A stretch of DNA of 64,000 bases from contig CAIIXF020000001.1 in assembly GCA_903813345.2 (NCBI GenBank), positions 20,212,001-20,276,000 on the forward strand. Reading direction: 5' to 3'. Position 1 is the stretch's first letter, and each line of letters begins with the position of its first letter. The DNA is from Owenia fusiformis. Its lineage: Eukaryota. Below are positions 14,501-47,500 of this stretch, in pieces. The notes beneath the pieces were generated by a model. That model saw only the letters and a program-made list of their open reading frames with translations, was not told the origin of the DNA and made no database searches. The position numbers and the translations under genes were made by a program.

Positions 14501-17500
14501 TCATTCTCCCACATCTCGAATATGGCAATATTATTTTTGACAGCGCAAATCTAAACCTCTTAGCAAGTTTAGATAGAGTCCAATATAGAGCGGGTCTTAT
14601 TGTAAGTGGTTGCATCCAAGGGTCAAACTCTGAGAAGGTGATGGCATGTCTTGGATGGAGATCCTTATCCAATCGAAGAAAAGAAAAAAAACTAGTTTTT
14701 TTTTTTAACATCTTTCATATTTATTGTAAGCACAAGTCATTTAGATACAATTACAAGGGGCAAAGCGCTGTAAGCATTAGATGTCCCCTTATATAAATAA
14801 ACAATAAAGTACAATATTCATTTTAACCTGGATGTCACCTGTAAATGGTAGAATGCCTTGCAGTGAAACAAAAGATAGGAGGGCTGCTGATATCCTGGGG
14901 GAGGGGTAGTATGTTGAAAAATGGAAACAGGTCATAGGCAGGAAAATATTTAGATTCTGGTTGTGTTTTCAATGAGATAATTCGCAACCAGTGAAAATAG
15001 ATTATCCATCTCTAATTGGGTTAATGATGGATCCCCAAAAAGAAAAAAGTGAATTTTGTCTTGCTGAGTTCTGAAATTAGTTAATAAGTCCCCATATATC
15101 CCTAAAGTATCTGTTATTAGTTTATTTCTTTGTTGTTCTTTCAGAGGGCATTTGAATAAGAAGTGGGGAAAAGTTTCAGGGGAACCACATAAACAATTTG
15201 ATGACTCAACTGAGCTCCAATTGTGGGCTTTGAGCTGGGCTTTTAAAATTAAATCTACCCTGGCTCTATTTAGATAAAGTTCTTGTTGACGAGTTAATTT
15301 TAAACAAATTGTTGAAACAACACCAGGGAACAAATTTAATTTAAGTGTTCTTTTAAAAGATGCAATAGTTGGCAAGAGCTTTTGTTCCAAGGGAACAGAT
15401 CCTGGATCATTCCATAGGTTCATCATTTTGTATATTGGAGACTTATGTGGATAGTGAATAGGGATAGTGAAATCTCGAGATTTCCTTAACAATCTTGCTT
15501 GAGGGTTTATGAATGGCCTAAATATATCTGAGATATAAATAGGTGTTAAATCATTCACGGCTTTATACATAATTGTTTTGAAGTGGAGGATCCTCCTCTC
15601 AGTTAAGGTGGACCAGTTCAAAATGTTAAGTACTTTGGAAGTGCTGGAGCCTGGGAGAGCACCAGAGACTATTAGACCAGCTTGGTACTGGAGACTGTCA
15701 AGTCTGTTAAGGTCACAAATAGGAGCACAATCGTAAAGGATATCACAATAATCAAATAAGGACTGAATATAAGCTGTATAGAGAATATTTAATTGTTTTG
15801 ATTTTAGTCTACCCTTAAGTGCTTTTAAGGGGTTAAGAGCTGTTTGGATTTTTGCACAGATAGAATTTATATGTGCTGACCCATTTAATTTTTTATCAAA
15901 AATGAAGCCTAGGTGTTTATGAATGTCAGTTTTTTCAATTTGTTTATCATTTAAGGTAACTGGTGGATAGATTGGATTATTTTTCTTAGAAAAGGTCATT
16001 TCTCTGCTCTTTTCTGGTTTAAAATCTAGTTTCCACTGTTTAGACCAGGCTTCGATTTTTTTTAGATCATTTTGAATTTGTATATGAGACTGCGGATTGT
16101 TTGGGGAAGTAGGTACAAAGAGGGAGGTGTCGTCTGCATAAATAAAGCACTCTGAGGTCAGGTTGTCCGGTAAGTCGTTTATATAGAGGAGAAACATCAA
16201 AGGTCCGAGAATACTTCCCTGAGGCACAGAACAGTTTATGTAGTTGCTAGGAGAGGTGTCAGAACATTTGCCATTCACAGTTACTTTGACACTCCTATCA
16301 GTCAAATAAGATTTTAGAAAAACTAATAAGTTTCCTGAAAATCCATACGCTTTCAACTTTTTTAGAAGAAGGTAATGGGGGACACGGTCAAACGCGGCCG
16401 AAATATCCAAAAAAATTGCACGTGTATCATTGCCGTCGCTAAAATTGCGCCAAATTAGGTTTTGGATGGCTAACAGTTGTAACTCATTGCTGTGCCCTTT
16501 CAAAAAACCGGACTGGTATTTATACAATAAGTTATTTTCAATTAAGTGTTAGTACATCTTAGAGTAGACAATTCGTTCTAATATTTTGGAAGTAATACTG
16601 AGAAGAGATATAGGTCTATAATTTCTTATGTCATTCTTATTATTCTTTTTAAATATTGGGCAGATATCCCCTAATTTCCAGTTCTGGGGAAAATTACCTG
16701 TGGTCAAAATTTTATGAAAAAGTAAATTAAGTGGCACAGAAATAGTATTCCTGCATAGCTGGAGCATTTTTATTGTAACTCCATCTGGACCATTTGCTTT
16801 TGAGGGGTCAAGATCCTTAATTATAGAGATAATTTCCTGTTGGTCAAAGTCAATGTTCTCTAATTTGTTATTGCATCTGTCAGGAAAATGAATATTATTG
16901 TTCAATGCATCTGGTTCTAAGTGATACATATTAGAGAAATATTTTTGAAATTCAGTAGCTTTCTCCTGACTGGTCAAACAGGTAATTCCAGTTAAAGGGT
17001 TTTCTATGGTAGGAATAGGCGAGCTAAATTTTTTACCTAAAAACTTTTTTATAAGTTGCCAAAATTTGTCACTTGCATGTGTTTCTCCATTTAGACTTTC
17101 TATTTGATCTGATGTAAATTTTGCTTTGGTTTCTAAAATAAGGTTCTTGACAGCTTCAGTCTGATTCTTATATGCTGTATAATGTTCAGGAAGATTGCTT
17201 TTCTTGAATTTAACAAAGAGTTTTTTCTTTTTCTGAATCGCATGAGATATACTCTCATTTAACCAAGGTCTATCATTCGCTTTAATTCTTTTCATTTTGT
17301 GAGGGATAAGCTTTTTAAAGATGGTAAGAATTGTATCAGTAAATTGATCATTTAAAGTGTTCATATCATGGTTTTGAGTAAAAAAATTAGCCCAGTTTAT
17401 TTTTTCAATTTCAAGGTTCAAAGCATCTTTATTTGCAGTATCATATTTCCAAATAAGTTTAAATTGATCTTCCTCTCTATTTAATAGTACATCGAGTTGA

Positions 17501-20500
17501 GTAAAAATTGAACAATGGTCTGATGAGCCTATAGGTTCAATTACAGTCGAAGAATTTATAAGACCTGGGACATTAGTGACTGTGAGATCAATGCAAGTAG
17601 CAGATGTTGATGTGATTCTTGTTGGTTCTTTTATTAACTGGTCAAAATCATTATCAAAAAATATATCATTTAAAATTTTTCCGTTTCTATCTTCATCCCC
17701 ATTGAGAAACCACTGTTTACATTTAGCGTTGAAGTCACCATTCAAAATGATTCCATCTGCATTTCGTGATTTTGCCTGTTTTATGTTCATTGTCAAAAGT
17801 TTCATAAATTCATCTCTCTCAATTACTGACTGTGAGGGTGAGCGATAAAAAACTCCATACAAAAAGGTTTTATGTTTAATTCTCAGTTCGGCCCACAGGG
17901 AGTAATTTGTATTCAAGTCGGGTCTTTCGTTACATAAAATGTTGTTGTTTATATAGATCAAAAGTCCTCGATTATTTTGATTGTGTAATGGATTATGAAA
18001 TCCATTCAGCAAGAAATTATCTTTAATTGATATAGTGGTCAAATTTCCAGTCTCACAAAGTCCCACAATTGATACATTCATTTCCTTAACTAGGTCATTC
18101 AGGGATTCAAATCGAGTACCCGCATCGGCTCCAATACTATTTATATTGGAGAATAAAATGTTTAAGTTACCTTTATATGGGACTGGCCCTGGGTGAGGAT
18201 GTACATCATTTGATAATGTAAGCTTGAGCTGATTGATATTAGGTTGCAGATAAGTGCCGCTTAATCCAGGAACACTTAAAAATATCAAAGTAATGCATAT
18301 TAAGGCTAGCAAAAACCTTGGGTTAATTTTCCTGTGACATAGTGAGTATATTCTTAGGACTAGAAGCAGTGGAATAAGCAGATACATGGATGCTATATTT
18401 AAAACTGTCATTCCAATTGTAACGGTAAAATATATCAGTTTAATTGTATCAAAGAGCTTTATCGATAACAGAGCGATAAGCGAAAATATCATCATAGCTA
18501 TGATACAAGGCAAAGAAAATGAAAGCACATAAGATTTGTTTATATTACTAATCCCTGTACTGAACATCTTGATGTTGTATAGGTTGAACCTGCCTATAGC
18601 TGACCTCCATTGGACTAAGCTAACCCCCATCATAAAGATATTTCCCTCCCAGGATAGCAGCAGTAATTCCTATAAGTAAACAGAGTGTTTCAGTCATGAT
18701 CGATATTAGAAGGCAAAGGATTCAGGAGGGAATGGAGAAATCAAGCATACATATAATTTAATTATGGCATCAAGACATAAATACATGTGTATACAAGTTG
18801 CAGTGAGATATAAGTGTTTTTGTATGTGGTTCCTCATTGAAATATGTTATGTGATCATAGCATATACGAGTTCCATGCTAAAGATTGTCACCTTCGGGGC
18901 TACAGTTTAGCTAGTGCTGGCAGTTGAAGCCGGGGGAACTCTCTGTTGTCTGGAACGGTGGATTTGAGATTGAACTATAGGGAGCTTCTCCATGTCAGAA
19001 ATAATTCCTGCAATGTCATCCACAACATTGAAAGCACGTATAGCACCATTCGCAGTTTTCCCCAGAATCTTACCATGATCGGACCAATGGTTGACTATGG
19101 ATGGGTGCAGTTCTAATTGTTTTAGTAGAGCACGGTTCATTGGGCTAAGGTCCTCGTATATCCGTATTGGGGTACCCTTGAGAAGGGATCGGTTTTTGAG
19201 CAATGAATCTCTAACGTGCCTGGATTTGAGACGAACAATTATGGATCTGGGTTTATCAGAGCTAGGTGAGGGGTTGCCAGGTACCCTGTGAGCAATCTCG
19301 ATATCAGCTGCGGTGAGCGAGTCACTAAGTTTAGTGGAACTTAGCTCATTGCAGAGTGCAGAAACACAATGCTGGAGATTCTTGGAATCAGACTTTTCGT
19401 CGGCAGTTTCCTTAATACCGTGTATTCTGATCAAGTCCTTGCGAGAGTACTGAGAGTTATGATTGGATTGCAAGATAACTTGGTTCAATTTTATAGACAG
19501 GTCTTCATGAGCCTTTTTGAGCTTCACGTTTTCTGATATCAGGCTTTCAATCTGGCTGTCATATTTATTCTCGAGCTTGATCAAAGGTTTAATCACACGC
19601 TCATCTAGGACTTTATTGACAAATGATTCCAGATTATTTTCAAATCTCTGCTCGAATTTTTTGAAAAGTTTTTCCATACCTGACATTGAGACAACGTCAA
19701 TATTATCCTCCTCGGCACTTGCGTAGGGGCTGCCCGTATTGGGAATGTTCTCAGGGTCATGAATACTACGCCCAGAATTTGATTTTCCGCGTTTGGTCGG
19801 CTGTTCTTGTTCTTCAACAGACATTGTCGATTCATTTGGGACTGCTGAAAATGTCATATCCCTAACGACGCCATCTTGGAAAATTTTAGGTGTCGACGTG
19901 GCCACTTTAGGCATGAAGTTTATAATACTTGGTTGCGTTGACATGATTATCTGAAGTCCTATCAGTTCCGTAGGTATTTATGTTCAATCACACAGTATAA
20001 TTTGCAGGTTAGAATAGTAGGAGATGCCTAGAAACGTATAAACATTCTCCGGCTCCAATTTCCTAAACTAACATTGTTGGTGACGTCACTTCCACCTTCA
20101 AAACTAGTTTTTATGTTTGACTTTGTAAATAATTATAAGATGCCTTCATATGTTTCAAATGTTTTTGAACAGTATAAGAATCAGGTAACCCACCAAAGAC
20201 TTCGTCGTAGCAATGATTTTAAGATCCCATTCAAAGCATCTGCTAAACTTAGAAAGTTTACAGCTTTATCCAGTATTAAATTATGGGATAATTTACCTGA
20301 TGAACTGAAACAAGCACACTCACGCAACTCATTTAAGTATAAAATTAGAACATTTTTGAATGGGAAAAAGAAAGAATTCACAACCCCAAGATTAAACCTA
20401 TCCAGAGATAAAGAAATTGTCTTAAATAAAACGAGATGTGATCTCATTTTTAGGCAGCATCTTTTTACACATAACTTCAAAAATATTCCAAATGCCAAAT

Positions 20501-23500
20501 GTAAATGTGGTCACTCTACTGAATCAACCAAACACCTATTGCTCCATTGCCCTCTTTTTAACACTCAAAGACTCAATTTTCACAGAGAACTAGGGGGACT
20601 GCCATCCTTTAATTTAAACTCTTTTAATAATAGAAAACAGGAGGACAGGGTAGACTTTTTACTTTTTGCAGATCCTTCTCTTGACACAATTACAAATAAA
20701 AAGGCTATTGAATTAACAGCCGAGTTTTTACACTCTATTGTCAAGGAAGTTAAACAGTCCAATATTCATTAATTTATACATATATCTCTGACCTGTCTTC
20801 ATGTTTTCAAGATTATTTTTATGTTCATAAATATGTTCTATATCTATCATTTTTACATTATGACCTATTTTAACTTATATTGTAACTACTTCAACAGGGC
20901 CAATAATGCTTCGGGGTAGGCCTGTATCTGTTTGTATGATGTATTATGAAATAAAGGAAATATAAAAATTAAAAAAAAAAAAAAAAATGCCATCAAAATA
21001 ATTGATTTGATTCAATATTTAACTGAAGACAGAATAGAAAATGCATATTGTGAATTTGTTTTGAATAACCTACAATTGTAATATACAAATGAAATGTCTT
21101 GAATTGAAGATCAACCAAGCTGTGGATAGTATGACTGAGGAAAGAGCCAAGTTACAGGCTGAGACTGAAGTTAAGCAGCTTGAACTAGATACATTACAGG
21201 AAGCAAAATTTCAACTTGAGGAAGAGAATGCTAGATTGCTAGAGAGAATGGGACAAGTGGAACAAACACAGGTATTTATCTTCAGTGTGATCAAAATATG
21301 ATTTTCCACCAAAAGTTTCATTTATTTATATTATTTACACAAACCTGCGTCCATTGATTTTATTCTCATAATATCTGCTCCATAGAAAGTTAACCCCTCT
21401 TAGATATGAGAATAATAACTCTTTTATCATTGCCTGTTATAGAACTCACAACAGCAGATTGAGAAGACAATGTCAGATATCCTAGAACAGAAGAATAAGC
21501 TGGCTTATGATAAAGGAAAGCTCCAGTCCAGAGTGGAGCAGCTGGAGTCCCAGCTCCAGTCTCTTGCAACCACCCACACTAACTCTGTTCAGCAGAGAAA
21601 CACATTCAACACTTTGCAGGGAAAGTACACAAAGGTACCTAGAATAGATCAGTAAATAGGATTTGTATGCTGTTTGGATGGCACCTGACACTAGTCATTT
21701 CCAAGAGAGTTATTTTATCACACTTTGAAAATGTGATATTTAGGAGTCCTCATTTTGTGCTGCTGGGTGTGCATGCATTCTTCTGGGTAGTTGGGCTTTT
21801 ACCAAATAAATCTTGTAATCAAAATTCCAGGAAAACCCCTGAATCATTCAACTTGAAATTTTTACAGACGCAAGAGCAGTCTAGTGCCAACGTCTGATTA
21901 GGTTTTGGGCATGCTGGGTTAATAGCATAGTGGCCATTTTGCTTGTCAAAGTGTGATATTTATGACTGTGTCTTTATTAGAAAGTATTTGCAGTAAAATC
22001 AATTAAGAGGCTTTGTGGATGAAATCTCCCATGTTTGCTTATACGAGGGGTGATCAATAAGTAATGGACGCCTTTTTACACAGATGCTTTTTATAGACCA
22101 ATCCCTTCGATTTTCTTACCAGTGATTCATCATTCAATTATCTATCAACTCTGAAGATTTGAAGACAAAATATATAATACATGTTGATATATCCTCATTT
22201 CTGTGAAGGAGGTACGGGTACCCCGGGACCGACATTTACGTCACATATTCTGAAGATATTTTAGCGTGTTTAACATGCAATGCAGTTGAATGCAGGCTGA
22301 ACAAAACAAACCATTATGGTCATGAATTACCCCATTTTGTTATGCCATAGTTGATTTTGAATATTTTATCATCACTATGTGGTATTCATGCCACATTTAT
22401 TCCACAGGACCCTCTAAATAGGTTCCATCAAGTGCTACATGTACACAATTCCTCATCCTCTTAACTCAAGATTGTAAGACAAGGCTGAATCCATTCTCTG
22501 ACATGGTAGCAAGATACAGTTTCATGGGTTGTTTTATTTAACCAATGTTAATAAACCTGCGTCTGTATATGTCTCTAACCTCTCTTTCTCTATGGAAATA
22601 AGTGGTACATAGAAATAACAAGTCACATGTGAGCAGATGTGGACAATAAAGTGCATTGGCCAAGGGCTCAATTTTGAGGTCCAGGGATATTGTTTTCTGA
22701 ACATTTTGAGATCTATGGGCAGGTGCATTGACCATACGGAGTAGGGTTTTCCCTTCTCTCACCACCCCTTTCTTCCACAATGTTTTCTCAAATTGACCTG
22801 CAAACCCCTTCCATACAACACTCTGACATTACAATACTTTCTGTTTATGTGTTACCAGTCAGCAAAAAAATTCAACCAATACAACACTTGTTGCATATAA
22901 AAAGTTCAAATCTAACTCAAATGTACCAAACTTGGCAAAAACTGAATATGAGACGTAAATGTCGGTCCCGGGGTACCTGTACCTCCTTCACGGAAATAAG
23001 GATATATCAACATGTATTATATATTTTGTCTTCAAATCTTCAGAATTGATAGATAAGTGAATGATGTGTCACTGGTAGGAAAATCAAAGGGATTGGTCAA
23101 TAAAAAGTATCTGTGTAAAAAAGCGTCCATTACTTATTGATCACCCCTCGTATATCAGTTTTTTATGTTAACTGAAATCATTGATCTTTATAAAAATACC
23201 AAACCAAGATCTTGGAGACAATCTACGTCTAAAATGCTGATTTGACAGTTGTTTAACATTACAGAGTCAAAGTGATTATAATGCAGCCAATATTAAAATA
23301 CAACGTTTGGAAAGTCAGCTGAAACAACTAAGTGCAATTGGTGAACGTAAGGAACAGGACTTTAGCATGGCCCTACAGTCCCGAGATGAAGCCATCCGTG
23401 AAGTAAACAAATTGCGAGATGTTGTCGAGTCAACAGATGGACGAGAAAAGCAAAAGGTATGTACATCATTGTAGCTTGTCAAAATATGCAAATTTTTCTC

Positions 23501-26500: not shown

Positions 26501-29500
26501 TTCCTGAAAAGGAAAGGCAAGCTATATATTTCCTTAACTGATCTAGACTACCGGAGCGTTTCCAATTCACTGTGTTAACCAGATCGGAGCGTTTCTTGAA
26601 TATGAGAATGTCATCATTTTTAAGACTGGATTTTCGGTCATCAAATCACTATTAGGATAATGTATGGTGCGTTGAAGCATTGGAATTTGACTAAAATATA
26701 CGTTGGTGCTCTAATCTTGGCTCAACTAATTACATGTATCGACAAAAGGGGTTTTGACCGGTAGAATGACAAATACGTTTTTGAATTTTGATAACTATAC
26801 TGCTTCGTACAGCTCTTCCTAATTGCTTCAAACGTCAACAGCCAGCCACGTACAACATGAATATCACACCCATCGAATGGTATACTCGAAATATGTAACT
26901 CATACCTCTTATTTCCATTATTGGGGAACTTGTCAGACGGCTCATCATTCCCGCCAGACAGTTTTCCTACTCCGGAGCGTTTCTTTGTTTAATTTCAGTA
27001 ATGAAACGCTCCGTCGTGCATGTAGGAGCGTTTGGGTTATACACCGTGGTAAAGGGGAACAACTGATTTGAAATTTGAATGCAGTAAATAAGCAATCTGA
27101 CTGGTCGAGATTATGGGTGAATTCTAAATACATTCAAGAAATAAATGTATTTTTAAAAAAAACTCCTAGATGATGGTTAAAGGGTTAAAACATTGAAAGG
27201 CGGAACTGAACTGGAAACTGTGTATTGGGGAGAAAACTTCAGGTACATGACCATGCAAAGGATGTCTGAAGCGTTGGTTGCTTTATCTGGGCTGTTAAAT
27301 ACTTTGGGGTACAGTTTTTGAGACACTCTATTTGATAAATGAATGATAAACATCTGCTTAAGAGTTCCAAATATGGTTTTTCAGATAACTCCTCTTAGGG
27401 AAGCTTTAGAGACATGCAAATCTGATAATATAAAGATGGCCAACTCTTTAGATGGTGTGATGCATTCTAACAGGCAACTACAGGTCAAACTTCACAAACT
27501 TGAAGATGAATTAGCAAAGAAAACTTATCAATTGGAAGATACAATAAGTGCAAGGTAATGTATGATGTATGATATTTTTCTTTCTTGGCCATTTTTGTCA
27601 AATCTCAGATATCTCATAGTATTAAATGTTTGAAATTTATTATTTCTTTATATTTCCATGTTTTCTGACAACTTGTTAGCTACAATTATTGCTAAGGATA
27701 TAAATATTAGCTAGCTATTCAGGAGACATCTAACTTGAAATTTTACCATAATTTTTTAAAATAAAATAGTCTAAAAATCCTCAATTTTGTATTTCAGAAA
27801 AAATGAACAAGACACAATGAAACAGGAGATTTGTAGTTATGAAGAAAGGATGACTGCCTTAAAACAACAACTAAATAAAGACAGAGATAAATCACTCAAG
27901 AAAACTAACAAAGAAGTTGTTGAGGTATAGTATTGAAATCCTGTTGCTTGAACTTATTTTTATTATGTCACCAAAAGTGGCGACATATTGTTATAAAGTT
28001 CCCAACTTTTTTGTGAACTGAGTTCGGCGGTTGGTGTTCAGTGTTTGGAGTTTTGTGTCTAACAAATGGTGACATTTTGCATGTTAATGTCTTGTTTAAT
28101 ATTCTTATGATAGGTTGATCCTTGGAATTTTGTTAATGTGAATGATCTTGTAGATGTCTGGAGATCTTCCAACCCTGATAAAAAGAGTTACACTTGGTCA
28201 AGGAATAATCCCTTTATTGCACGAAGAATTGACTACATTTTTGTCAATAACAGTCTCAGTAACAACATTATTGAATCTGATATTATACCATGTTCAAATA
28301 CTGATCATATGGGTACTACAGTCTCTATAAAAGAGCAAAACTCGGACAGAGGTACAGGATTTTGGAAGCTAAACAATGAAATTTTAAAAAACCAAGAATA
28401 TGTATCAATGATAAACAAACTAATTGATGACACTGTTAACTCATATAAAAATGTAGTCAACGATCAAATTTTATGGGATACATGTAAATGTGTTATTAGA
28501 GATGCAAGTATAAGATTTAGCAAAACTCGTGCTTCTAGAGAAAAATGTGGGTTAAAACAGATTGAAATAGAGCTAAAATTGGCACAAGATAAACTAGTAA
28601 ATGAACAAAATGCGCAAAATATTAATAGAGTTCAACAGTTACAAGTAAAATATGATATTCAGACAAATAAGAAAGCTAAAGGGGCACAATTAAGATCAAA
28701 AGTTAAATGGGTAGAACGAGGTGAACTGAATACAAACTATTTCTTATCATTAGAGAAAAGTCATGGAAAAATGAAAGCCATTGAAGTGTTAGAGGATGAT
28801 GGGGTATATACAAGCTCTATGAGTGAAGTTATGGAAAAACTGTTTAAATATTACAGTGAAATGTATAAGGAAAATGGGGATATTATTTATACGTTAGATG
28901 ATTTTGCGATAGACCTTGAAATGCCATCTTTAGATGATAATGACAAATTAAAATGTGAAGGTTTGATTAATGAACATGAATGTGCACAAGCTATTAAACA
29001 AATGAAATCTGACAGTAGTCCAGGGATTGATGGATTAACATCTGCCTTCTACAAAATGTTTTGGACGAAAGTAAAAAGCTTAGTAGTTAATTCATTAAAT
29101 TATGGGTTTCAGACAGGGCAACTTTCTAGCAGTCAAAGGAAAGGAATAATAGTATTAATACTTAAAGGCAAAAATATTCCAAGAAATCGTTTAAAATCAT
29201 TCAGGCCTATATCATTAACTTGTTGTGACTATAAAATAGGGGCAACTGTGTTGGCCAACAGACTGCAGACTGTAATCAAAAAATTGGTTGAAAGTGACCA
29301 GAATGCATATTTGAAGGAAAGGGGTATACATCTAAACTTAAGATTGATAGATGACATAATGAATTACGTTTATAATGATGACATTGAAGGTATTATGGTC
29401 GCTCTTGACTATTCACGGGCGTTTGATTCTATTTCTAAGAAGTATGTTTATAAAGTTGTTGAAAAATTCAATTTTGGTCCTGAATTTCAAAGATGGATAG

Positions 29501-32500
29501 AAATTTTCACAAAAAATACACAGTCAACAGTCTCTAATAATGGATTATTCACAAAATTTTTCAATTTAGATCAAGGTTTGAGGCAAGGTTGTCCACTAAG
29601 TTCATTACTTTTTATATTATCAACAGAAATCTTTGCTTGCAAAATTCGTCAAAATCAAAATGTGAAAGGAATTAAAATTCAAAACTGTAATACTGAAATT
29701 AAGTTAACAAGCTATGCAGATGACACAACCCTCTTTGTTAAAGATTTGCAATCGTTAGAGCATACTTTAGATGATACAAACAAATTTTACTTAACATCGG
29801 GACTCAGACTTAACTTGGAAAAAACAAAAGCAATGTGGATCGGAAGAAATAAAAATAATATTGAAAAGCATTTAGGAATCTGCTGGGAAGTAGGTGAAAA
29901 TGCTAAAATAAAAATACTGGGGACATACTTTTCAAACCACAAACCAGCAAATTTAATAGAATCAAATTGGACTGAAAAAATTGATAAGATGGAATGTTTA
30001 ATGAAAAATTGGAGTAAACGCAACTTGTCACTGGTTGGTAAAGTCTGTGTTGTTAAAAATTTGATTGCATCACAATTGTTGCATATGTTAATGGTTTTTA
30101 AATGTCCAGACAAATATTTAAAACAGGTCAATTCAAAAATACACAAATTTATATGGAGTAAATCTGGTAAAGGTTCAGAAAAAATAAAACGTAAAGTGTT
30201 GAGACAGCCTTACTTAAAAGGTGGAATCAACATGGTTGATATATTTGTTAATCAAGAGGCATTTATTATGTCCTGGGTCAGGCGTTTTATTGAGGATGAA
30301 AACTCAAATTGGAAAAACATGAGTAAAATGATGTTATCAAAGATTGGATTTGATTTCAGTATTTTTCATTTCAATTCAGACTTAAAATTTATAAAACCTC
30401 AAATTATTTGGGGGAATACAACCATCTTCTATGAATTCCTTTTGAAAACTTGGTTCAAATATAAAACATGTGATGATGTCATATTTGATAATAGCTATAT
30501 TTGGAATAATCTAAACATAACTTACAAGGGAAAAGTTATATTTTTTAAAAATTGGAAAAATGCAGGTATCAATTTGGTAAATGATGTACTGGACAATCAA
30601 CAGAAACTAAAGAATATAAATATCTTCAAACAAATGATGCCTAACAATGCAGCTATCACGCTTGAATATCTTGTCATTCAAAATGCATTGAAAAACAAGA
30701 CAATTGCACTTGGTCAGAATAAAAGATTGTACAATAATATCATTATAAAAATATCAAAGTCGAAAGATTATAAACAATTAATTATTAAAAAAGAAAATAT
30801 CATACCAGGAGCTTGTCAACGATGGAATAATGAATATCAAAATATTAATTGGTCTGATCATGGGCTTTCAACTAGAAGGGTATGCAACTCTATGTAATAA
30901 CATGAGACCTTCAAAATGAGCAATGACATGCTTCCCTTTTATGACAATATTTCAAAAAGTATTCGATAAATGTATAATGTTTAAGTATTATTTTGAATAA
31001 AAATCAATTTTTAATATGATTTAAGCATAAAATATATTCAATATCATATAAAAGTAAACAAAAGAGACCAATAAGAATAAGAGTTATCAAGATGTTCTCT
31101 TTGAGTATTGCATTGTGGGTAATTATTCAAGAACACATTCCAATAAAAACATAATTTGTGGGAGAATGTTCACTTTCTGTATTGTCATAATTATGATGAA
31201 TTCCAATTTTTATTAAATTATCAAGATGTATGTAGAAGATCATGTTTTTATTTTTGAGTTATTTCTTTTAATCATCAATAAAAAGTACAAAATAAAATTT
31301 TCTTGGAATGTGTACATTCTCCAATTTTGAAAACCCATGGCAATGTTTATGTATGAAATATGGGAAGTTGCCTACCCTTCTAGTTGAAAGCCCATGGTCT
31401 GATATTTGGAAAATGATTCAAAATATTACTGAACCGAGATTAAAGAGCTTACAGTACAAAATATTGCATAGGGTATATCCCACAAATATTCATCTATTTA
31501 AATGGAAAATTGAAGGGACAAACTCAAACAATTGTAAATTTTGCAGAAATGAAGAAGACTCATATGCTCATTTCTTCATCTCTTGTAAAAAGGTAAAACA
31601 TATATGGAAAGAAATAATGAACAAAATAAATGCAAAATTTGGATGCTCTATAAAATTAACAGAAATGGAAATTTTGCTTAAATATACAAATAAGAAAAAA
31701 TATATTGAGAATTATGTAAATAATATTGTATTAATAACAAAAAACTGTATTAGCAAGTATAAATATGGTCAACATCCAAATTTAGAATACTTATTAGAAC
31801 AAGAGCTATATATAAGAAAAGTCATGTGAAATTATTGTGTACTATATGTATGTAAAAATATTGTATAACTGTACTTGATAAACTGAAATAAAAAAAAAAA
31901 AAAGAAAAAAAAAAAAAAAAAAAAGTTGATTTTGGGCCAGTTGTATTCAGATTATTCAGGCTTTGAGTTTGTTTGTGTTCATCAGTAGAAAGGCGACTTT
32001 GATCTCAGCTTGGATCCCACTATAATTGACCCATTCTGGATTCATAGCCATGGGATTTGCTTGGATGGTGACTGGAGGAGCTAATAACCACCCTCCATGT
32101 GTAACCATGCTTAACCATCTCTATTTGTAATGTCACCATCAAGAAGTGGTAACATAATGTTACACACAACATTTTTGTGACTAGCAGTATTGGTGTTTGA
32201 CATCTGTAATTGTAACACCTTTTAAAGTTCAACAAGATGATGACATTTTGTCATGTACATGTTTTTTACTCTGTTACTATATTATAATCCATTTTTTGGC
32301 TTGTAGGTGAAGAGGCAGCTAGATGAACTGTGTAGTAAAAATGGGGATCTCTCTCGCGCTAATACTGAGTTACGCCATAAAATTACAGAGTTAGAATACC
32401 TCATTCGCAATGATAAGGAGAGAATAAACAAACAGAAGGCACAATTAGAACATTTAAACAAAGTTAGGAAACAGCAAGAAGATTCTCTCAAAACATATAA

Positions 32501-38500: not shown

Positions 38501-41500
38501 CAACGGTTATTCAATGCTTTAAAACGTTCATTTTGAAAATCAGAACTGGAGAAAAAAATTCAGAACTTTTAAAGCCTAATTGTTGGAGCATTTTGAAAAA
38601 TTTATAAATGAATAGGTGCCGACACTACTTACACTGATGAGTTGCTTGGTCTTCTTTTCCTGCTTTATCAAAAGTCTGAAATACATAGGAAACAAATGAA
38701 AAGTGCCATTAATCCGAACTAGTGCTCATATTTTATTTTATTGGGATCCACTGAAAGGTTGCATTTTTGATAAATTAATGTTTGATAATATTCACTCTAT
38801 GTAGCATTTGCATCTCTTGTTCTGAAACTCCATTAGAAAAGCTCACTTAAGAGTCAATACTGTGTATAAGATTATGATTATACTTACGTAATAATGAAGT
38901 AAATTCCCAGACATACAAGACCAAAGAAGAAAAAGCCAACTATGACTATCAAAGCTGTCATCCAAGGCTTCAATCCTGGACCTGTAACCCAATTTAATCT
39001 AATAAGATCTCATATGCATGAAAAACCATTTGTTGAATTTACTCTTTAAAAGATTTTGTATTATCTTGAATATGTACAGAGTACTCTTGTGTTATAGTTG
39101 ATGTTATTTTTCCATCATATGTACTGATTACAAATCTAGTTTATATCAATATAAATATTTCAAATAATGAGACTTCTCCTCCGATTATGTAAGGTATATA
39201 TGAAATTTACTTTGCGGACATCATGATGCCATAAATTGTCAAATCTGACAAAATTAAAAGTTTGAATTTACCTGCCCTAACAAGGGTTGTGATGGTTGGT
39301 GTATGGGGACCTTTCCCATGTTTAGTGACCGCCTCCAATGTGAGACTGTAAAAAGCCCCACCCTGCAGGCCTTCTATCTTGTGTTGTGTTGCAGAGCTGG
39401 CTACAGTGATGTTTACAGTTGTCTCTAATAGGGGGGTAAAATACAATATTCATATTCACTGGGAAACAAAATACGGATGTATCGGTCATTTGCCAATGAT
39501 TATCATATACATGTAAAGTAAAGATGAGCACGTGCAAATGAAAAAGTAATAGCATATTTTAATGGGATCAATTATAAGAACATTATAAATGAAGCAATTT
39601 AAATGATTAAATATGAAAGAATTAGCACCTACTTTCACAGTCTTGTTTTCTACAGTAGCGAATCATATAGTGCTGCACTATTCCATCATATTTATTGCAT
39701 GGATAGTGGCTCCAGTGCACTTGTAAACTCTCTGCCTGTTTGTTCTCCACAATAACATTGAGGGGATGTTCTCGTGGTGGAGCTATTCAATAAAATAAAC
39801 TTTCATTTCAATCAATCCAAGAAAAAGAAGGATGGTCAAATATTCTTCATAAAATTTTTAAACTCTGAGGATAGGTGAAAGGGGGTCATTTGAACATAAC
39901 TGTTTTTTGTGCATTCCATCATTGGTAGAGATGTTGAGGTTGTTTATTGTTTTAAAATAAAATAATGAAACATATGTCTCATCTTGAGTATGACTAAGGG
40001 GTTAATGTTCTTGCAGAAGCTAAGGCTTCATAAAGCAGTTTTCAGTCCACTGGATTCCATTATAAAGTAAAATATTACATGTAACCAGCCTTATGTTCAT
40101 CAGTATCATACAAGCATTCAGCCTACTGGATTCCATTATAAAGTAAAGTATTACATGTAACCAGCCTTACGTTCATCAATATCATATAAGCATTCAGCCC
40201 ACTGGATTCCATTATAAAGTAAAATACTACATGTAACCAGCCTTACGTTCATCAGTATCATACAAGCATTCACCCCACTGGATTCCATTATAAAGTTAAG
40301 TATTACATGTAACCAGCCTTACATTCATCAGTATCATACAAGCATTCACCCCACTGGATTCCATTATAAAGTTAAGTATTACATGTAACCAGCCTTACGT
40401 TCATCAGTATCATACAAGCATTTGGCCCACTGGATTCCACTGCTTGTTTCAGCAAATTCTGTAGACAGACCAAATAGGTAATTTCCAGGTTTACCAAGTT
40501 CAAGAAGGCTGAAGTTCTGGGTATCACCAGCAAGAGTTTGCCATTGCAAATCACCCTTAAACAAAGAGAGGAATTACATTATTTCTAATATTTGAAATAA
40601 TGGCCCCTTACTTTGTGATGAACACTACAGTAGTTGTGAAAAAAAATATTCACAAAAAATCTATTTATTGGCTCATTTTGTGCATGACTAGAGGCAATCT
40701 CGGTCTGTTACATGTCCAAACCCTCCAATATATGGGTTTCATTCAATTGTAGTTTTACAATGTAGTTTGAAAACATCATATTGGAATCTTTAAATAGAAA
40801 GAGGATGCATTAAAAGACAATTCATCAGTTTGTGTGAGCATTCATTATTAATGTTTGTAGATTACCTGACATTTGTCACCTGGAGCCCTGTGGCACCAGT
40901 AGGCTGTATGGTTATATGGACTATTGGACCACTCAAATATGACCAGACTCTGATCAGGATGCTGCTCTCTCCTTACCATCCATGTCATAGGATGTTGTAT
41001 ACCTGTTAATTAATCAGAGGAAGAATCAAACATTTGACTTGTACACCATGATTATGCAAAACTTATTAAAGTTTTCAAAATGATTATCACTTCACAATTC
41101 TCAATGGCACAACTTACGTTTATTTGCTTTGTGTACAACAATTCTTTGAATTGGTAATGAAGAATTAGTTCCCTTCTTTGTAGCACTTGTCACTTCAAAT
41201 GTCATCTGAATATCTTGTGTTTTCCGGAAAGTTCCTGAGGTAGAAGTTGAATAAAGAGGTATCTCATTGTTAGGACTGACCATTCTTGGGGTATAAGTTA
41301 CGACACCATTCCAAAGTCTTTTCATGATTTCTTGCCAGTATATTGTAACATATGACTGCTCTCCTTCTGTATATTCATAAAATGCTCCTGTTGTTAAAGT
41401 AGGAATTCCGCCTGGCACTGAAAAATATCAATATAAAGTCATCATAACTGGGTGCATTGTGGGTGCCACAGCCTCTACCATCGCTTGAAGAGAATAAACA

Positions 41501-44500
41501 TCCTTCAGAAGAATTATATGACAAGGATCCTTGATAAAATCATACTAACTGGGATGTTTTATCAGAAGAGTTTGTAAAGTTAATCATTTCCAAGTTTATT
41601 GTTTTTTGTCACCATCACAAGTGGTGACATATTGTTATGGTTAGTCCCATGGTAAGGCCCATAGCTCATAATAAGCTAAAGCCCAACATACACCAATGGG
41701 GCACGATGGGATCTCCATATGCTTAACATTGCATGGGACCTTGTGGGCTTAATGTCCCATCTTGCCCCATCACATCCCAACCGTTTCCGGTCAGTATGAC
41801 CTGTGATAACTTGAAGTTTCGAAGCACTCGATGTTATTCTGGATTTTAAACGACAAATCGATGGGATATTGTGTATTGAAGTTGGCGACAGAAACAGCAA
41901 GGTAATGCATATGATATATGAGAATCCGAGTGCTATATAATGTAAACTAAATAGTCAAAATTATTAGTATAAAGTAGAAAGCTACCGGTAAGATTTGGAT
42001 CAATTTTTTCATTCAATCCAGTAAGCATTTGTGATTTAACTGATACAGTTTTCAGACACTGCATGTACTCGGTTTTTCCCATATCATTATAACATTGGTA
42101 ATATAGCCTAGCTTTCAATAGTGTAACACGGTGTTTTTGTTAGCGTTCAAGGAGCTTAGCGGGCACCCAAAGGGGAGATTGAAAAGTGTATTTGTAAATA
42201 GTCTATTGTATTTGTGTAAATGTATTTTTAGAGCATTAATTTGTATTTTGTACGAGTTAGTGTGGGGGGGGGGAGTTATTGTTGATGAACGTAGTACCCT
42301 TTGGGAACCCGCGTAACCTGTACATAGGAGTTACCTAAATTTGGAGATCCTGAAAGCTGTTCGTTACTTCTTATTTTCGTGTGACTGTATTGTTTATAAA
42401 TGAATATCTTATTATATGAGGAACTCAACAAATTACTAATATCTAGGCACTGTTCCTCATATGTTTTAGGAATTTCTGCCTTTCCAGGCAAACCAGTATG
42501 TTGGCAAAATGCATATATGTACTTGTAATCAGACTGATGTATTGGTTTGTGTTTGATTGTGTTTGTGTTTGTTTTGCTTGCTCATCCAAGTCACATGTAT
42601 CTAATTGTACACGTACATGTAGCTCATACTTTTCAAATGAACTTATCAAGAGTCCCTATAGCCCTGCAAGATCAGGAATAGGGTAATATGCCCTGTTGTA
42701 CTGAATCATGGAGAAGAGCAGTTGGACTTTTTAATTGGCACCACATATTAAGCTTGGAAAACATATTGGAACCGGGCTCTCAATTGAAATGTGAATACTC
42801 TACTGAATTTTACCAGCTGGCTGTTATTTTAGTTGCATTTTTAACTCTCTTACTGATTGTAGGAGGGTTACATGTATCTAGTTGTAAATTGCAAATTCTG
42901 CCCTTTGTCTTGGTATTTGCATTTCACATAGTCTACATTTGCATTATTTTATATACCATGTTGTCTATAATAAGATATTTGGTGAGTCTCTATTCACATA
43001 CAATACCAATTATACTTAATATTTCATTACTAACTGTGGTCATTTCATGTATACCTGGATCTACATTACTTATACATAATCCAAGCCACATGTATTACTT
43101 ATTGCTCCTATTATGTGGGGATATTGAAAGTAATCCAGGCCCATCAGATGACTTAAAAATTTTGTTCAGCAACATTAACAGTGTGAAGGCAGACTCACTA
43201 AATCGCTTAAATTTCCTGAAAAATTATGCAGCAAAGGAGGAGTTTCATATTATAGCCCTATGCGAATCGGGTAATATCACACCTGAAGATCTAAAATCAA
43301 AGAATTTTGACATAAGTAACTATGGCGCACCAAAATTTTGCTCAAACTCTGGCAGAGGCTTGATTTTATGGTCCCATGATTCTGTTGAAGTAAAAATTTT
43401 GGATCAATTTAGATCAGCTGACCTGGTCAACTGCTGGATTGAAGTTAAACTAAACTTCAAAACATTTCTATATGGATTTTTTTACAGATCACCATCAATG
43501 AATGCTAATGATACCAGGCGGTACTTCTCTGATTTCAAAGATAATATATCTAATGTGGCAATACATCCGAATAATGGGATATTTATTAATGGGGATTTTA
43601 ACGCAAGAAATGATGTATGGTATGAACATGATCATAACAATTTAGCTGGAACTGAATTATTTAGTACATTAACTGAACTTGATCTTTTGCAACTCGTCTC
43701 TGAACCAACCAGAGTCAGGCAGAACTCAAAGACATGCATTGATTTACTCATAACCAATTCCGAACATGCGATTTCTCACAGAGTTGATCCCCCGATTGGA
43801 AACTCTGACCATTGTGCAATTGTGTCAACCATAAGATCGAGGATCCCAAGAGAGCCATCTATTAAAAAGACCATGTGGAACTTCAGTAATGCTGATCTAC
43901 AGCAACTTAATGCCAATATTACTAACTCTGATTGGAGTTTCATATTTGAAGACTCTGTCAATAGTGCAACCAATAGATTTATTGATAATTTTATGTCCAT
44001 AATCAAGACAAGTATTCCTTGCAAAATTTTTTCTACACGTTATGATGATCAACCATGGTTTAATAGCTCAATTAAAAAGGAAATCTATAAACGTAATAAA
44101 CTTCATCATAAATTCAAAGCAACAGATAACATAGAATTTTATGAAAAATATGTGACCCAAAATAGAAAAGTAAATCTATTGATTAGCGAGGCCAAAGCAA
44201 ACCACGAAATCAAACTCAGAGAAAAGATTGATAATGTTTCAAAAAACTCTACAGAATATTGGACTTTAATCAAAACTCTTTTGGGTAAAAATCATACAAG
44301 CTCATTTCCTGTTCTTATTGATCCTTTGACAAATATCTCAGCATGCAGCAGCTTTGAAAAGGCTGAAGCTTTTCTAAAATATTTTGCAAGTAAAAACTGT
44401 GTTGATATTAATAATACCAATGAACCACCACTTGAACTTAGAACAAATACAATATTGCCAGAAATCAGAACTTCTCCACAGGAGGTATTTGAGCTGTTCT

Positions 44501-47500
44501 CTAACCTAGATGTAAATAAATCCCATGGACCTGATGAGATAACCAACAAAATGATTAAACATAGCGCCTCTTCTCTTTGTCTTCCTGCCAGTCAATTGTT
44601 TAATAGAATTTTAGATGAGAATATTTTCCCAGACATCTGGAAAGAAGGCACTGTCATCCCAATATTTAAGAAAGGGGACAGAGGCACAATAAGTAATTAT
44701 AGACCAGTGACCCTCTTATGTACTTTTTCTAAAATATTGGAAAGGATCATCCATAAGAGATTACTTCTCCACTTGCTTGAAAATAATTTATTATACAAAC
44801 TCCAAAGTGGCTTTTTACCCAAACATAATACAGTGAACCAACTTATTCATATTGTTCATGACCTCCATACTAACATCGATAATGGTAAAAATGTGCGTTC
44901 CATATTTCTTGATCTCACGTCAGCGTTTGACTTAGTTCCACACCATCTTCTTTTAAAAAACACTAAAAGCCTATGGATGTAATGACAATTTTATCTCCTT
45001 AATGACATCTTATCTTTCAAATAGGAGAATACAAGTACGGGTAAACAATAGTTTATCCAAATGGTCAAAAGATCGGGAACAGCGTAATGCCAATTTTGAT
45101 CCTGGCCATAATGGTAGTCATAATTTTACCATAAATGCGGGTGTGCCGCAGGGGTCTGTTTTGGGACCCCTATTATTTCTAATTTATATTAACGACTTAC
45201 CCGACAATCTCAACTCAAAAACTTTTATTTTTGCTGACGACACTTCACTGTATGATGCGTATGATAAAAATGAAGTCTTTTTAAACATTAATCAGCCATT
45301 ACAAGATGACCTTGACACTTTACACCAATGGTCATTACTATGGAGAATGAAATTTAAAGCTCAAAAGAGTGCTGACATAACTTTCTCGGGACAACGCACC
45401 CAGAATATTAACCAATCTCCCCTAACTTTGGGAGGTGAAGAGATACCCATTTGCACAACGCATAAACATCTTGGACTAGTCCTGGATTGTAAACTTAATT
45501 TCAATGCCCATATAGATCAATTAATTGGTAAAATAACCTCCCTAATTAGACCCTTGAAAGCTCTCTGTAAAAATTTACCAGGTAAGCACCTTGAAAAAAT
45601 CTATAATGCCTATTTTTTACCACACTTTGACTATTGTGACATAATCTATAATAAAGCCTCCTTAGCAAAACTACAAGCTCTCGACAGACTGCATTACAAA
45701 GCAGCATGCCTGGTGTCTGGTGCTATCCATGGATCAAGTACAGACAAAGTTCTTTCCTCTATTAATTGGAAAACCCTCTCCTCGAGAAGAGATGAACATT
45801 TAAAAATTTTCTTATTCAAAGCTCGCTTCAACTGTTTCCCACCCTTTATTTGTGACCTAGTTCGTACATATGAAATCACTCATACCAGAGACCTCAGATT
45901 CCAGCATGACTATAGAATTCCGAATCATTTGAGTTCATCTTGTGGTAAATCCACTATTTTTAATTCCATGAAGGTTTGGAATAAACTGCCAGCAGCGATT
46001 AGAGTTGGTCAACCCATTTCAAGGTTTAAAAGGTCAGTGAGAGAGTACACGAGCCTTGTCTCTGTATCAACTACTAAAATGACTAGGTGCATGCCAAGGC
46101 AAATAGAAATCAAATTCAATAGACTAAGAGCTGGTCTACTTTTGAACAGTCACTTTTATTCTCATAATTTCCTGTCGGTAACAGATCCCAAATGTCAATG
46201 TGGTGAAAAATTTCAAACCACTGAACACTTTTTAATCAAGTGTCCACTGCTCCTTAATGAACGTGAAGTTCTTCTTGCAGGACTATCAGACTTGGACTGT
46301 TTACGAGATTTTGAAGCATACTCAATTCAAAGGAAAACACATTTTCTATTAAATGGAGATGAAAATTTGGACTTTGAAACAAATGAAAAACTGATTGAAA
46401 TCACTGCTCACTATACATTTCAAGCTATACTAAGTCTGGGACAGGGTAATTTTTAACATTTGAGCTTGATACCACAACTTGGTACTGGGGAACAAGCAAA
46501 CCAAACATCAACAAAAAAGAAAAAGCTTCTCTGAACATTTTGTGTATTTCTGAATATCAATTTTTATTTATCAAAATGTTTCAATTGCCGATAATGTTGT
46601 CCTGTCAACAATGGCAATTTGTAAAAATGTAACCGATTGATTTTTAGAAATAAATATGAAGTATGTAAAAAAAAAAAAAAAACATCCCATGAGGTCCCAC
46701 ATAGGCTCGGTGGGGCAAAATACCACTGAGTCCCATCAAGCCCATCGAGAATGAACATGTTCATTCTTTCCATGGGACATTGTGGAATTTTCGATCATAT
46801 GACGTGTTGTGTGAAGCCCAACATACACCAATGGGGCACGGTGGGATTTGATGGGGACACCATGGGGCATGATAGGACTCTATGGGGCAAAGTCATCAAG
46901 GTACCATGGGATTTTGTGGGATTAGATGGGACAAGATGGGACTCATTGGCTAAATGAGATTTTGCCCCATTGGTATAGATTGGCTTAAGGAGATTCTCAG
47001 TGCCATATCTATGTCAAAACTTAATTGTTAATTGTTATGCCATGACATTAACATGCAAGTGATTTATAATACAAATATGAAAATGGATGTGTTTTAAGCC
47101 TCATGGCACAATTCCTTAGGTAGCAAAATTCTCTTGGGGGCATCTCTAATTTCTGTAAAACCAAAGATCTGAGAATTTATTTTCTTGATATTGATTTCTC
47201 ACCATCCTCGGGTGTTTTTGTCATGACTTGAGATGAACTGCTGGGATAGCCCACTATGCTGTTGTTATAGATGGCTCTAACAATCACTTCTATTGTATAA
47301 TTTGTGAAGGGCACAAGACCTGTGATGTGAATGGCTTCTGCCTCTATTTGTAGTCTTAATGTCTGGAAGTAAATGAAATATATGGAGATGATTTAAAGTC
47401 CAGGTGTTTTTCTTTATATAGATGTCGCCTGTATTTTTGCATAATAAGGTATGGCTGGGGTTCACAAAAAGACAACAGCTCTCTAAACAAAATCTTATAA

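Follow-up and report, generated by a model that had tools for sequence, protein, structure and literature searches.

Sequences of the 2A/StopGo type at the head of open reading frame 2 (ORF2) of long interspersed nuclear elements (LINEs) have been known since 2006-2013, and the part upstream of them has been treated as an uncharacterised spacer. The role of the LINE 2A itself is debated, with separation of two products on one side and throttling of the ORF2 protein (ORF2p) on the other. This text concerns LINE C, an element in a 64,000-nucleotide stretch of the genome of the annelid Owenia fusiformis (GCA_903813345.2, contig CAIIXF020000001.1, positions 20,212,001 to 20,276,000; hereafter the window), the ORF2 of which opens with a 151-residue hydrophobic leader that closes in a 2A motif. 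In published work, the LINE 2A lies about 40-80 residues from the ORF2 N-terminus and most 2A-bearing LINEs have a single ORF (Odon 2013, PMC3708506), while LINE 2A sequences occur in many animals, annelid datasets among them (bioRxiv 2026.09.24.754024). Down-regulation of ORF2 by the 2A has been proposed, and the same authors speculate that the part N-terminal of the 2A is released as a separate product (Odon 2013, PMC3708506; Luke 2013, PMC3894237). Like LINE C, the elements that they describe carry D(V/I)ExNPGP ahead of the apurinic/apyrimidinic endonuclease (APE) at the start of ORF2, and they mostly have no ORF1 (Odon 2013; Luke 2013). An earlier, sequence-only reading of the window had stated that 2A-like motifs are known at the N-terminus of ORF2 in some APE-type LINEs, which agrees with this record (PMC3708506).

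To judge from its sequence and its relatives, the LINE C leader is a genuine coding module, conserved at the head of ORF2 across a group of APE-type LINEs. The module would have three parts: an N-terminal motif, [YW]Rxx[IV]GxF[NH] (the N motif), a set of two to four transmembrane-like helices and, last, a 2A/StopGo element of class A. Translation of positions 42688-43143 on the + strand yields the same 151 residues plus Pro152 as the sequence-only reading had given, starting with MPCCTESWRRAVGLFN and ending in LLLLLCGDIESNPG before the proline. The Pro152 codon ends at 43143, with the APE domain and the reverse transcriptase (RT) domain directly downstream, and the ATG at 42688 stands two codons past an in-frame stop. 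Translation would start at this ATG, a start that is conserved across the homologues. The features of the leader and of the adjoining domain are given below, with Kyte-Doolittle (KD) hydropathy values, sums on an approximate Hessa-type scale, and helices of an AlphaFold2 (AF2) model.

42688..43140, + strand: LINE C leader, residues 1-151, to Gly151 of NPG/P (translation; homologues)
42709..42735, + strand: conserved N-terminal motif WRRAVGLFN, residues 8-16 (motif in relatives)
42817..42873, + strand: hydrophobic segment 1, residues 44-62; KD 2.65 and approximate Hessa-type sum -2.0; AF2 helix 39-63, low confidence
42895..42963, + strand: hydrophobic segment 2, residues 70-92; KD 2.79 and approximate Hessa-type sum -1.8; AF2 helix 70-101
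42997..43059, + strand: hydrophobic segment 3, residues 104-124, marginal; KD 2.1; below the approximate Hessa-type threshold in LINE C; AF2 helix 103-120
43072-43089, + strand: conserved IHNPSH ahead of the 2A, identical in the homologue P0002, with NPSH also in the metagenome LINE L001
43090..43143, + strand: 2A/StopGo element MYYLLLLLCGDIESNPG followed by P, residues 135-152 (translation)
43171..43821, + strand: APE endonuclease domain (PF03372, residues 162-375; PF14529, residues 279-378)

Homologues of the leader were found at the head of other LINE ORF2s. An exhaustive phmmer search with the leader against 1.84 billion representative proteins returned one match, P0002 (E 2.5e-22, residues 1-152), a predicted 209-residue protein of O. 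fusiformis that shares with LINE C the start, the N motif, the hydrophobic stretches, CLPGSVLLIHNPSH, LLMLCGDVEINPGP and the beginning of the APE. When the APE-RT part served as the query, 120 relatives were listed, the best two of which, P0005 and P0006 at 37-39% identity, have leaders of 137 and about 190 residues, respectively, both with the N motif. A further homologue lies within the window, where the ORF2 of a second element on the - strand, LINE B, aligns with LINE C ORF2 from residue 1-2 at 32-33% identity (tblastn); it begins with MMGVSLVQWRSAIGRFN, followed by three hydrophobic segments and then LSNDVHPHPGP. These four leaders span 137-190 residues and have 23-45% identity to that of LINE C, and the start methionine is common to all five. 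The leader is therefore open from the same start in five divergent elements; a leader not kept open was an outcome that the sequence-only reading had named as fatal. L001 and L004, two LINEs from metagenomes with APE and RT domains, carry leaders of 147 and 186 residues, respectively, each with at least two hydrophobic segments and a canonical 2A. Immediately upstream of the leader-2A ORF2 of L001 lies a 5'-open frame of at least 361 codons with internal repeats (3-1088), which has no significant similarity to LINE B ORF1 (best local match 15 residues, E 0.039). Beyond these relatives, the LINE C leader had no match in Pfam, in which the other long leaders gave only chance-level ones (E 0.05 or weaker), no match in a profile search of the PDB and no usable match in the ESM Atlas. 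A homologous-protein search with the leader alone gave none at lengths 420-1337, and a profile search none at lengths 267-2000.

Since base composition alone might yield an open, hydrophobic frame in an AT-rich window (34% G+C) and in leader DNA with 38% T, chance controls were applied. When the nucleotides of the leader DNA were shuffled 2000 times, every shuffle contained stops (10 on average). The mean hydropathy of the leader, 1.0, was reached by 15 of the 2000 shuffles, the shuffle mean (grand average of hydropathy, GRAVY) being 0.5, and at least three hydrophobic segments appeared in nine of them. Among the 24 stop-to-stop frames of at least 100 codons in the window, such a set of segments is found in two, both of them LINE ORF2 heads. 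T occupies codon position 2 in 45% of the leader, as against 30% in the rest of LINE C ORF2. Furthermore, the leaders of LINE C and LINE B, at 40% nucleotide identity, use different codons at 19 of their 33 identical residues, including the R, A, G, F and N of the N motif. Conserved residues are thus encoded by differing synonymous codons, and it is the protein that is under constraint. Identity to LINE C differs between the leader and the part downstream of it:

LINE B versus LINE C: leader 23%, downstream 36%
P0005 versus LINE C: leader 28%, downstream 37%
P0006 versus LINE C: leader 28%, downstream 41%
P0002 versus LINE C: leader 45%, downstream 73% (37 aligned residues)

The hydrophobic character of the leader is common to these elements. 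In LINE C, 19-residue KD windows of at least 1.6 span residues 38-68, 61-102 and 101-130. The AF2 model, built from a five-sequence alignment, places helices at 39-63, 70-101 and 103-120 with a predicted local distance difference test score (pLDDT) of 59.6. On the approximate Hessa-type scale segments 1 and 2 pass in LINE C, and segment 3 passes in LINE B, P0005 and P0002, three of the four long-leader homologues. The leader is thus predicted to have at least two hydrophobic helices of bilayer length, with three KD peaks of at least 2.1 and two segments passing the approximate Hessa-type sum. Of the three hydrophobic segments claimed in the sequence-only reading, all stand as KD peaks and the third is marginal on the approximate Hessa-type scale; the outcome that it had named as fatal, an absence of predicted transmembrane helices, is not seen by KD, by the approximate scale or in the low-confidence AF2 helices. 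Each long leader has about three hydrophobic segments (two to four by the measures used), and smoothed hydropathy follows that of LINE C with r of 0.72-0.75 for P0002, P0005 and LINE B and 0.52 for P0006. For each pair, all of the 107-161 circular-shift controls fell short of the observed r, in a comparison that the alignment itself partly favours. At position 42820 the whole contig depth of two read runs, X5 and X1, has A where the window has G, which makes Ala45, in hydrophobic segment 1, a threonine.

The 2A motif is complete in LINE C. GDIESNPGP at residues 144-152 fits D(V/I)ExNPG/P, LLLLLCG directly upstream supplies a leucine-rich context, and NPGP with a 2A context occurs only this once within the window. 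LINE C has equivalents of L6, L7, G11, D12, E14, N16, P17, G18 and P19, positions that do not tolerate change in a cryo-EM and mutagenesis study (PMC12846837) or in a deep mutational scan (bioRxiv 2026.09.24.754024). The leader therefore does end in a canonical 2A motif, as the sequence-only reading had it, with every residue present that published scans find change-intolerant. Fully canonical motifs also occur in P0002, P0005, L001 and L004. The LINE B 2A (DVHPHPGP) carries G11N, E14H and N16H, and in the scan G11N was tolerated in both peptides examined, E14H in one, and N16H was not tolerated (bioRxiv 2026.09.24.754024); in P0006, Asp replaces the final Pro (NPGD). The LINE B and P0006 copies probably cannot skip, to judge by these residues. 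An essential 2A residue is thus changed in two of the five long leaders, so that the leader would stay fused to ORF2p there. Initiation just upstream of the 2A, which the sequence-only reading had named as a possible objection, finds no conserved internal methionine near the 2A; because Met135 of LINE C is not conserved, a conserved start at that point is unlikely. Four further loci with a 2A, the metagenome loci L006 and L007 and the viral-contig loci L008 and L009, were rejected as LINE relatives, since they encode virus-like polyproteins of 1360-2080 residues with only the 2A peptide in common with LINE C. The 2A peptides of L006, L007, L008 and L009 (e.g., LLLMCGDIESNPGP) are almost identical to that of LINE C.

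A shorter form of the leader is widespread. Counts of the N motif and the 2A among the 120 listed relatives depend on analyst-defined patterns and are lower bounds, many of these proteins being N-terminally truncated. At least 12 of the 120 carry [YWF]Rxx[IV]Gx[FH] at residues 7-9, as do LINE B and P0002, at least 19 have a 2A-like motif within the first 300 residues, and at least 11 have both. In the more distant relatives the leader is 53-80 residues long, with a single aromatic or hydrophobic stretch between the N motif and the 2A. Because such shorter leaders, with the same motif and 2A, match the published arrangement, the multi-helix leader is an enlarged variant, a short conserved module having expanded in the lineage nearest to LINE C. 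The sequence-only reading is confirmed in what it observed, the leader and its 2A, and partly supported in its interpretation; the leader is an enlarged form of a widespread short leader and no novelty standing alone.

The reading preferred here, with a rough probability of 0.55, is that the leader would be a peptide released co-translationally by StopGo that targets the membrane or the endoplasmic reticulum (ER) and possibly also throttles ORF2p. As the motif suggests, the ribosome would skip one peptide bond between Gly151 and Pro152, leaving the leader and the APE-RT as separate chains. Segments 1 and 2 would be outside the ribosome about 50-90 codons before the 2A and could bring the complex to the ER membrane ahead of skipping; such early targeting would be possible because both segments would exit the ribosome well before codon 152. 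The leader would then remain in the membrane, with ORF2p made beside it on its own mRNA, and the leucine-rich 2A may also lower ORF2p output. A bolder version, for which the odds are distinctly below even and which is offered as tentative, is that an invertebrate LINE lineage encodes a small polytopic membrane protein, released by StopGo, that brings the LINE mRNA under translation to the ER or nuclear envelope, for assembly of ORF2p with its RNA on a membrane. If true, a membrane platform would partly replace the job of ORF1p in single-ORF elements such as LINE C, and the leader would become the first integral membrane protein to be attributed to any non-LTR retrotransposon.

Several observations weigh against membrane targeting by a released peptide. 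The leader evolves faster than the APE-RT in each comparison given above, the third segment is marginal in LINE C, and the AF2 model of the leader, at pLDDT 59.6, is of low confidence. The topology suggested by the positions of charges is inconsistent between LINE C and LINE B. The loss of an essential 2A residue in LINE B and P0006 may reflect decay of those copies or a release that is dispensable. Among the nine short leaders with both the N motif and the 2A, three (P0008, P0009 and P0020) have no window that reaches the hydropathy threshold, so that membrane spanning is not a constant property of the module. Finally, LINE B also has an ORF1, and the leader is therefore not simply an ORF1 substitute.

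The best-surviving alternative, although rather unlikely, is that the long, hydrophobic, leucine-rich nascent chain and the 2A serve only to cut the yield of ORF2p, through stalling, StopGo drop-off or quality control, with the peptide degraded and without membrane function. LINE C has five leucines at -14 to -10 of its 2A, and three or more at -19 to -10 accompany reduced protein abundance in a survey in which the 'reduction' class makes up 59% of the tested ORF2p-associated 2A-like peptides (PMC13405545). Since these leucines fit the published 'reduction' type, the 2A may hold ORF2p output down, as the down-regulation proposed by Odon 2013 and Luke 2013 would have it, and the wide variation of leader length and sequence among relatives is in keeping with such a role. 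However, some 20-30 residues suffice for throttling, which leaves unexplained both the roughly three hydrophobic helices with a conserved profile in five lineages and the conserved motif 130 residues upstream.

It is improbable that the read-through product is the functional form, in which the leader would tie the APE-RT with its RNA to the ER or nuclear envelope and the 2A would only determine how much of the enzyme is tethered and how much is free. In favour of this, the frame has stayed open in two of the five long leaders despite the loss of an essential 2A residue, and dual targeting through partial skipping is documented for N-terminal 2A-like signals (PMC4981915). Against this, the fully canonical motif has been kept in LINE C, P0002, P0005, L001 and L004, LINE B is a decayed copy with other interruptions, and a nuclear enzyme held by three helices would need a release step. 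That the leader is non-functional, either a chance-open T-rich 5' region with its true start at Met135, 17 residues ahead of the skip site, or a remnant of an ORF1 or a captured host gene, is very improbable and already largely refuted: the 38% T, the mild hydrophobicity of the shuffles and the lack of any Pfam, PDB or ESM Atlas match are outweighed by the failure of all 2000 shuffles to stay open, by a start and N motif common to five elements with synonymous codon changes, by the lack of conservation of Met135, by the lack of similarity to LINE B ORF1 and by the fact that the sole database relative of the leader, P0002, itself heads a LINE ORF2.

The element that carries the leader is probably complete. 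Its bounds are placed at about 41780-46682 because of an 8-nucleotide repeat, ACATCCCA, on both sides (41772-41779 and 46682-46689), the poly(A) end, and the start of the match to the window, at 41778, in contigs derived from the reads of two studies. The parts beyond the leader and the endonuclease are as follows.

41780..46682, + strand: LINE C, probable full-length element with a 5' untranslated region (UTR) of about 0.9 kb, a single ORF2, a 3' UTR and poly(A) (repeat, contig limits, tail)
44668..45379, + strand: RT domain, split by a frame break near 44956-44961 (RVT_1, PF00078, with halves in both ORFs)
45002..46456, + strand: second part of ORF2, with the C-terminal half of the RT and a Cys/His tail (ORF list, domains)

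The 3' end has AATAAA and a run of 15 A at 46668-46682. Positions 41780-42687 contain no ORF longer than 62 residues and gave no tblastn match to LINE B ORF1; as read from the window, LINE C is a single-ORF element without ORF1. Its 5' limit is uncertain, as 41778-42264 is at single-copy depth and a doubling appears only from about 42264. The APE and RT (PF03372, PF14529 and PF00078) lie downstream of the 2A in what is one ORF apart from the break in the window, a point on which the sequence-only reading needs correcting: a single split within the RT domain divides ORF2 into 42688-44982 and 45002-46456. These parts differ by one frame step, and the second frame is open from 44956. At position 44961 the contigs have one letter fewer than the window in X5 (438 of 520 in depth) and in X1 (50.9 of 50.9), and the ORF2 pieces therefore share one frame in both runs; the window owes its break either to a change specific to this copy or to an error of assembly. 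In X5, a DNA run, contig depth is about 100 in the unique flanks, 221-235 over 42264-44637 (0-1 differences) and 500-2000 towards the 3' end, and X1 shows the same trend at lower depth. Positions 42264-44637 stand at about 1.5-2.3 times flank depth, with 0-1 differences per kb. This depth profile is that of a young, 5'-truncating family, and the LINE C family also looks young from its poly(A) tail, its near-identical extra copies and the contigs without the frame break.

Both flanks of LINE C (41434-41777 and 46683-47075) are a very high-copy repeat rich in ATGGG/CCCAT, with a summed contig depth of about 67,000-106,000, compared with about 100 in the unique flanks. Many contigs link 417xx with 4674x, as other copies of this repeat would give, and at 41434-41650, likewise inside it, the depth of RNA reads on one strand rises to about 430-fold. 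Within the LINE C 5' UTR an upstream ORF of 62 codons occupies 42498-42686, its TAA standing one base ahead of the ORF2 ATG (TAATATG), a spacing that could permit termination-reinitiation. The 5' UTR stretch 42584-42609 recurs inside the leader at 42867-42886 and 43079-43095, at 90-94% identity. Contigs of about 244 in depth connect 42595 to 42839 and 42880 to 43047, junctions that might stem from a related copy whose leader is different or shorter. A subset of two 2026 RNA-seq runs, about 6% of each, contained essentially no leader reads, a result uninformative on expression either way, and the 3' part of LINE C was covered in this subset at low depth, mostly at less than 95% likeness.

LINE B, which supplies the second long leader of the window, has the following parts.

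18181..18633, - strand: leader of LINE B ORF2, 151 residues, a homologue of the LINE C leader (alignment)
18583-18609, - strand: N motif of the LINE B leader (alignment)
18451-18507, 18355-18411 and 18259-18315, - strand: hydrophobic segments of the LINE B leader (hydropathy)
18184-18228, - strand: degenerate 2A of LINE B, LKLTLSNDVHPHPGP (LSNDVHPHPGP; translation)
18907..19944, - strand: LINE B ORF1, 345 residues, 270 nucleotides upstream of LINE B ORF2 (ORF list)
14968..18633, - strand: LINE B ORF2 (APE and RT), interrupted (tblastn; APE domains)

LINE B ORF1 has a weak match to LINE-1 ORF1p chains (E 0.011) and no match in a Pfam search, and the LINE C leader has no similarity to it. The clades to which N-terminal 2A elements are assigned after Odon 2013 are Rex1, L2, L2A, Crack, CR1 and Ingi; for LINE C the only hints of clade are its poly(A) tail and this weakly L1-ORF1p-like ORF1 of LINE B. 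Retroelements are densely packed in the window. At 12997-14796 on the + strand, tail to tail with LINE B, lies another LINE of this group, truncated at its 5' end, with 39-43% identity to LINE C ORF2 from residue 475 onward; an 862-residue ORF with RVT_1 lies at 28309-30897 (+), and a 219-residue ORF at 20113-20772 (+) has 30% identity to the C-terminal part of LINE C ORF2.

Compared with known systems, the part upstream of the LINE 2A emerges as a conserved module with its own motif and, in one lineage, a membrane-protein-like domain. In place of the 40-80 residues of Odon 2013, the 2A stands at 151 residues in LINE C and at 137-190 in its four closest relatives. The LINE C leader adds two or three transmembrane-like helices to what Odon 2013 and Luke 2013 describe, and annelids lie outside the species of Odon 2013. 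The words 'hydrophobic' and 'membrane' are absent from the main texts of both papers (PMC3708506, PMC3894237), and no description of a transmembrane leader upstream of a LINE 2A was found in the titles and abstracts of the literature searched or by term look-ups within selected papers, although supplementary files may list such sequences. Such a leader gives the 2A something concrete to release, and makes ER entry, membrane-bound LINE translation and a need for the leader in transposition testable.

Other ORF2p-like proteins resemble LINE C in having variable N-terminal sequence, sometimes whole domains, before the 2A and APE (PMC13405545). The upstream domains described there are Josephin and OTU deubiquitinases and PPR repeats, from algae and dinoflagellates; the text mentions no membrane leader, and 'transmembrane' occurs in it in one reference title only (PMC13405545). 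Precedents for membranes in LINE replication are the lipid-binding esterase ORF1p of CR1/L2-type LINEs (Schneider 2013, PMC3905857) and the ESCRT dependence of L1 (Horn 2017, PMC5478143). They involve peripheral lipid binding by ORF1p or a late-domain interaction, unlike an integral peptide encoded by ORF2, and neither has a sequence relation to the leader.

A parallel in arrangement is found in the sea urchin NLR proteins, in which, as in LINE C, a hydrophobic N-terminal peptide closes in a 2A (Roulston 2016, PMC4981915). There the 2A signal couples targeting of the nascent chain to the membrane or ER with release of the downstream protein into the cytosol, and a single peptide of about 26 residues at the extreme N-terminus is both signal and 2A, on cellular immune genes (PMC4981915). 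In LINE C, by contrast, the 2A occupies residues 135-152, behind separate hydrophobic helices, with an N motif of its own and within a retrotransposon. The leader module might be the natural source from which the 2A-like signal sequences of cellular genes arose.

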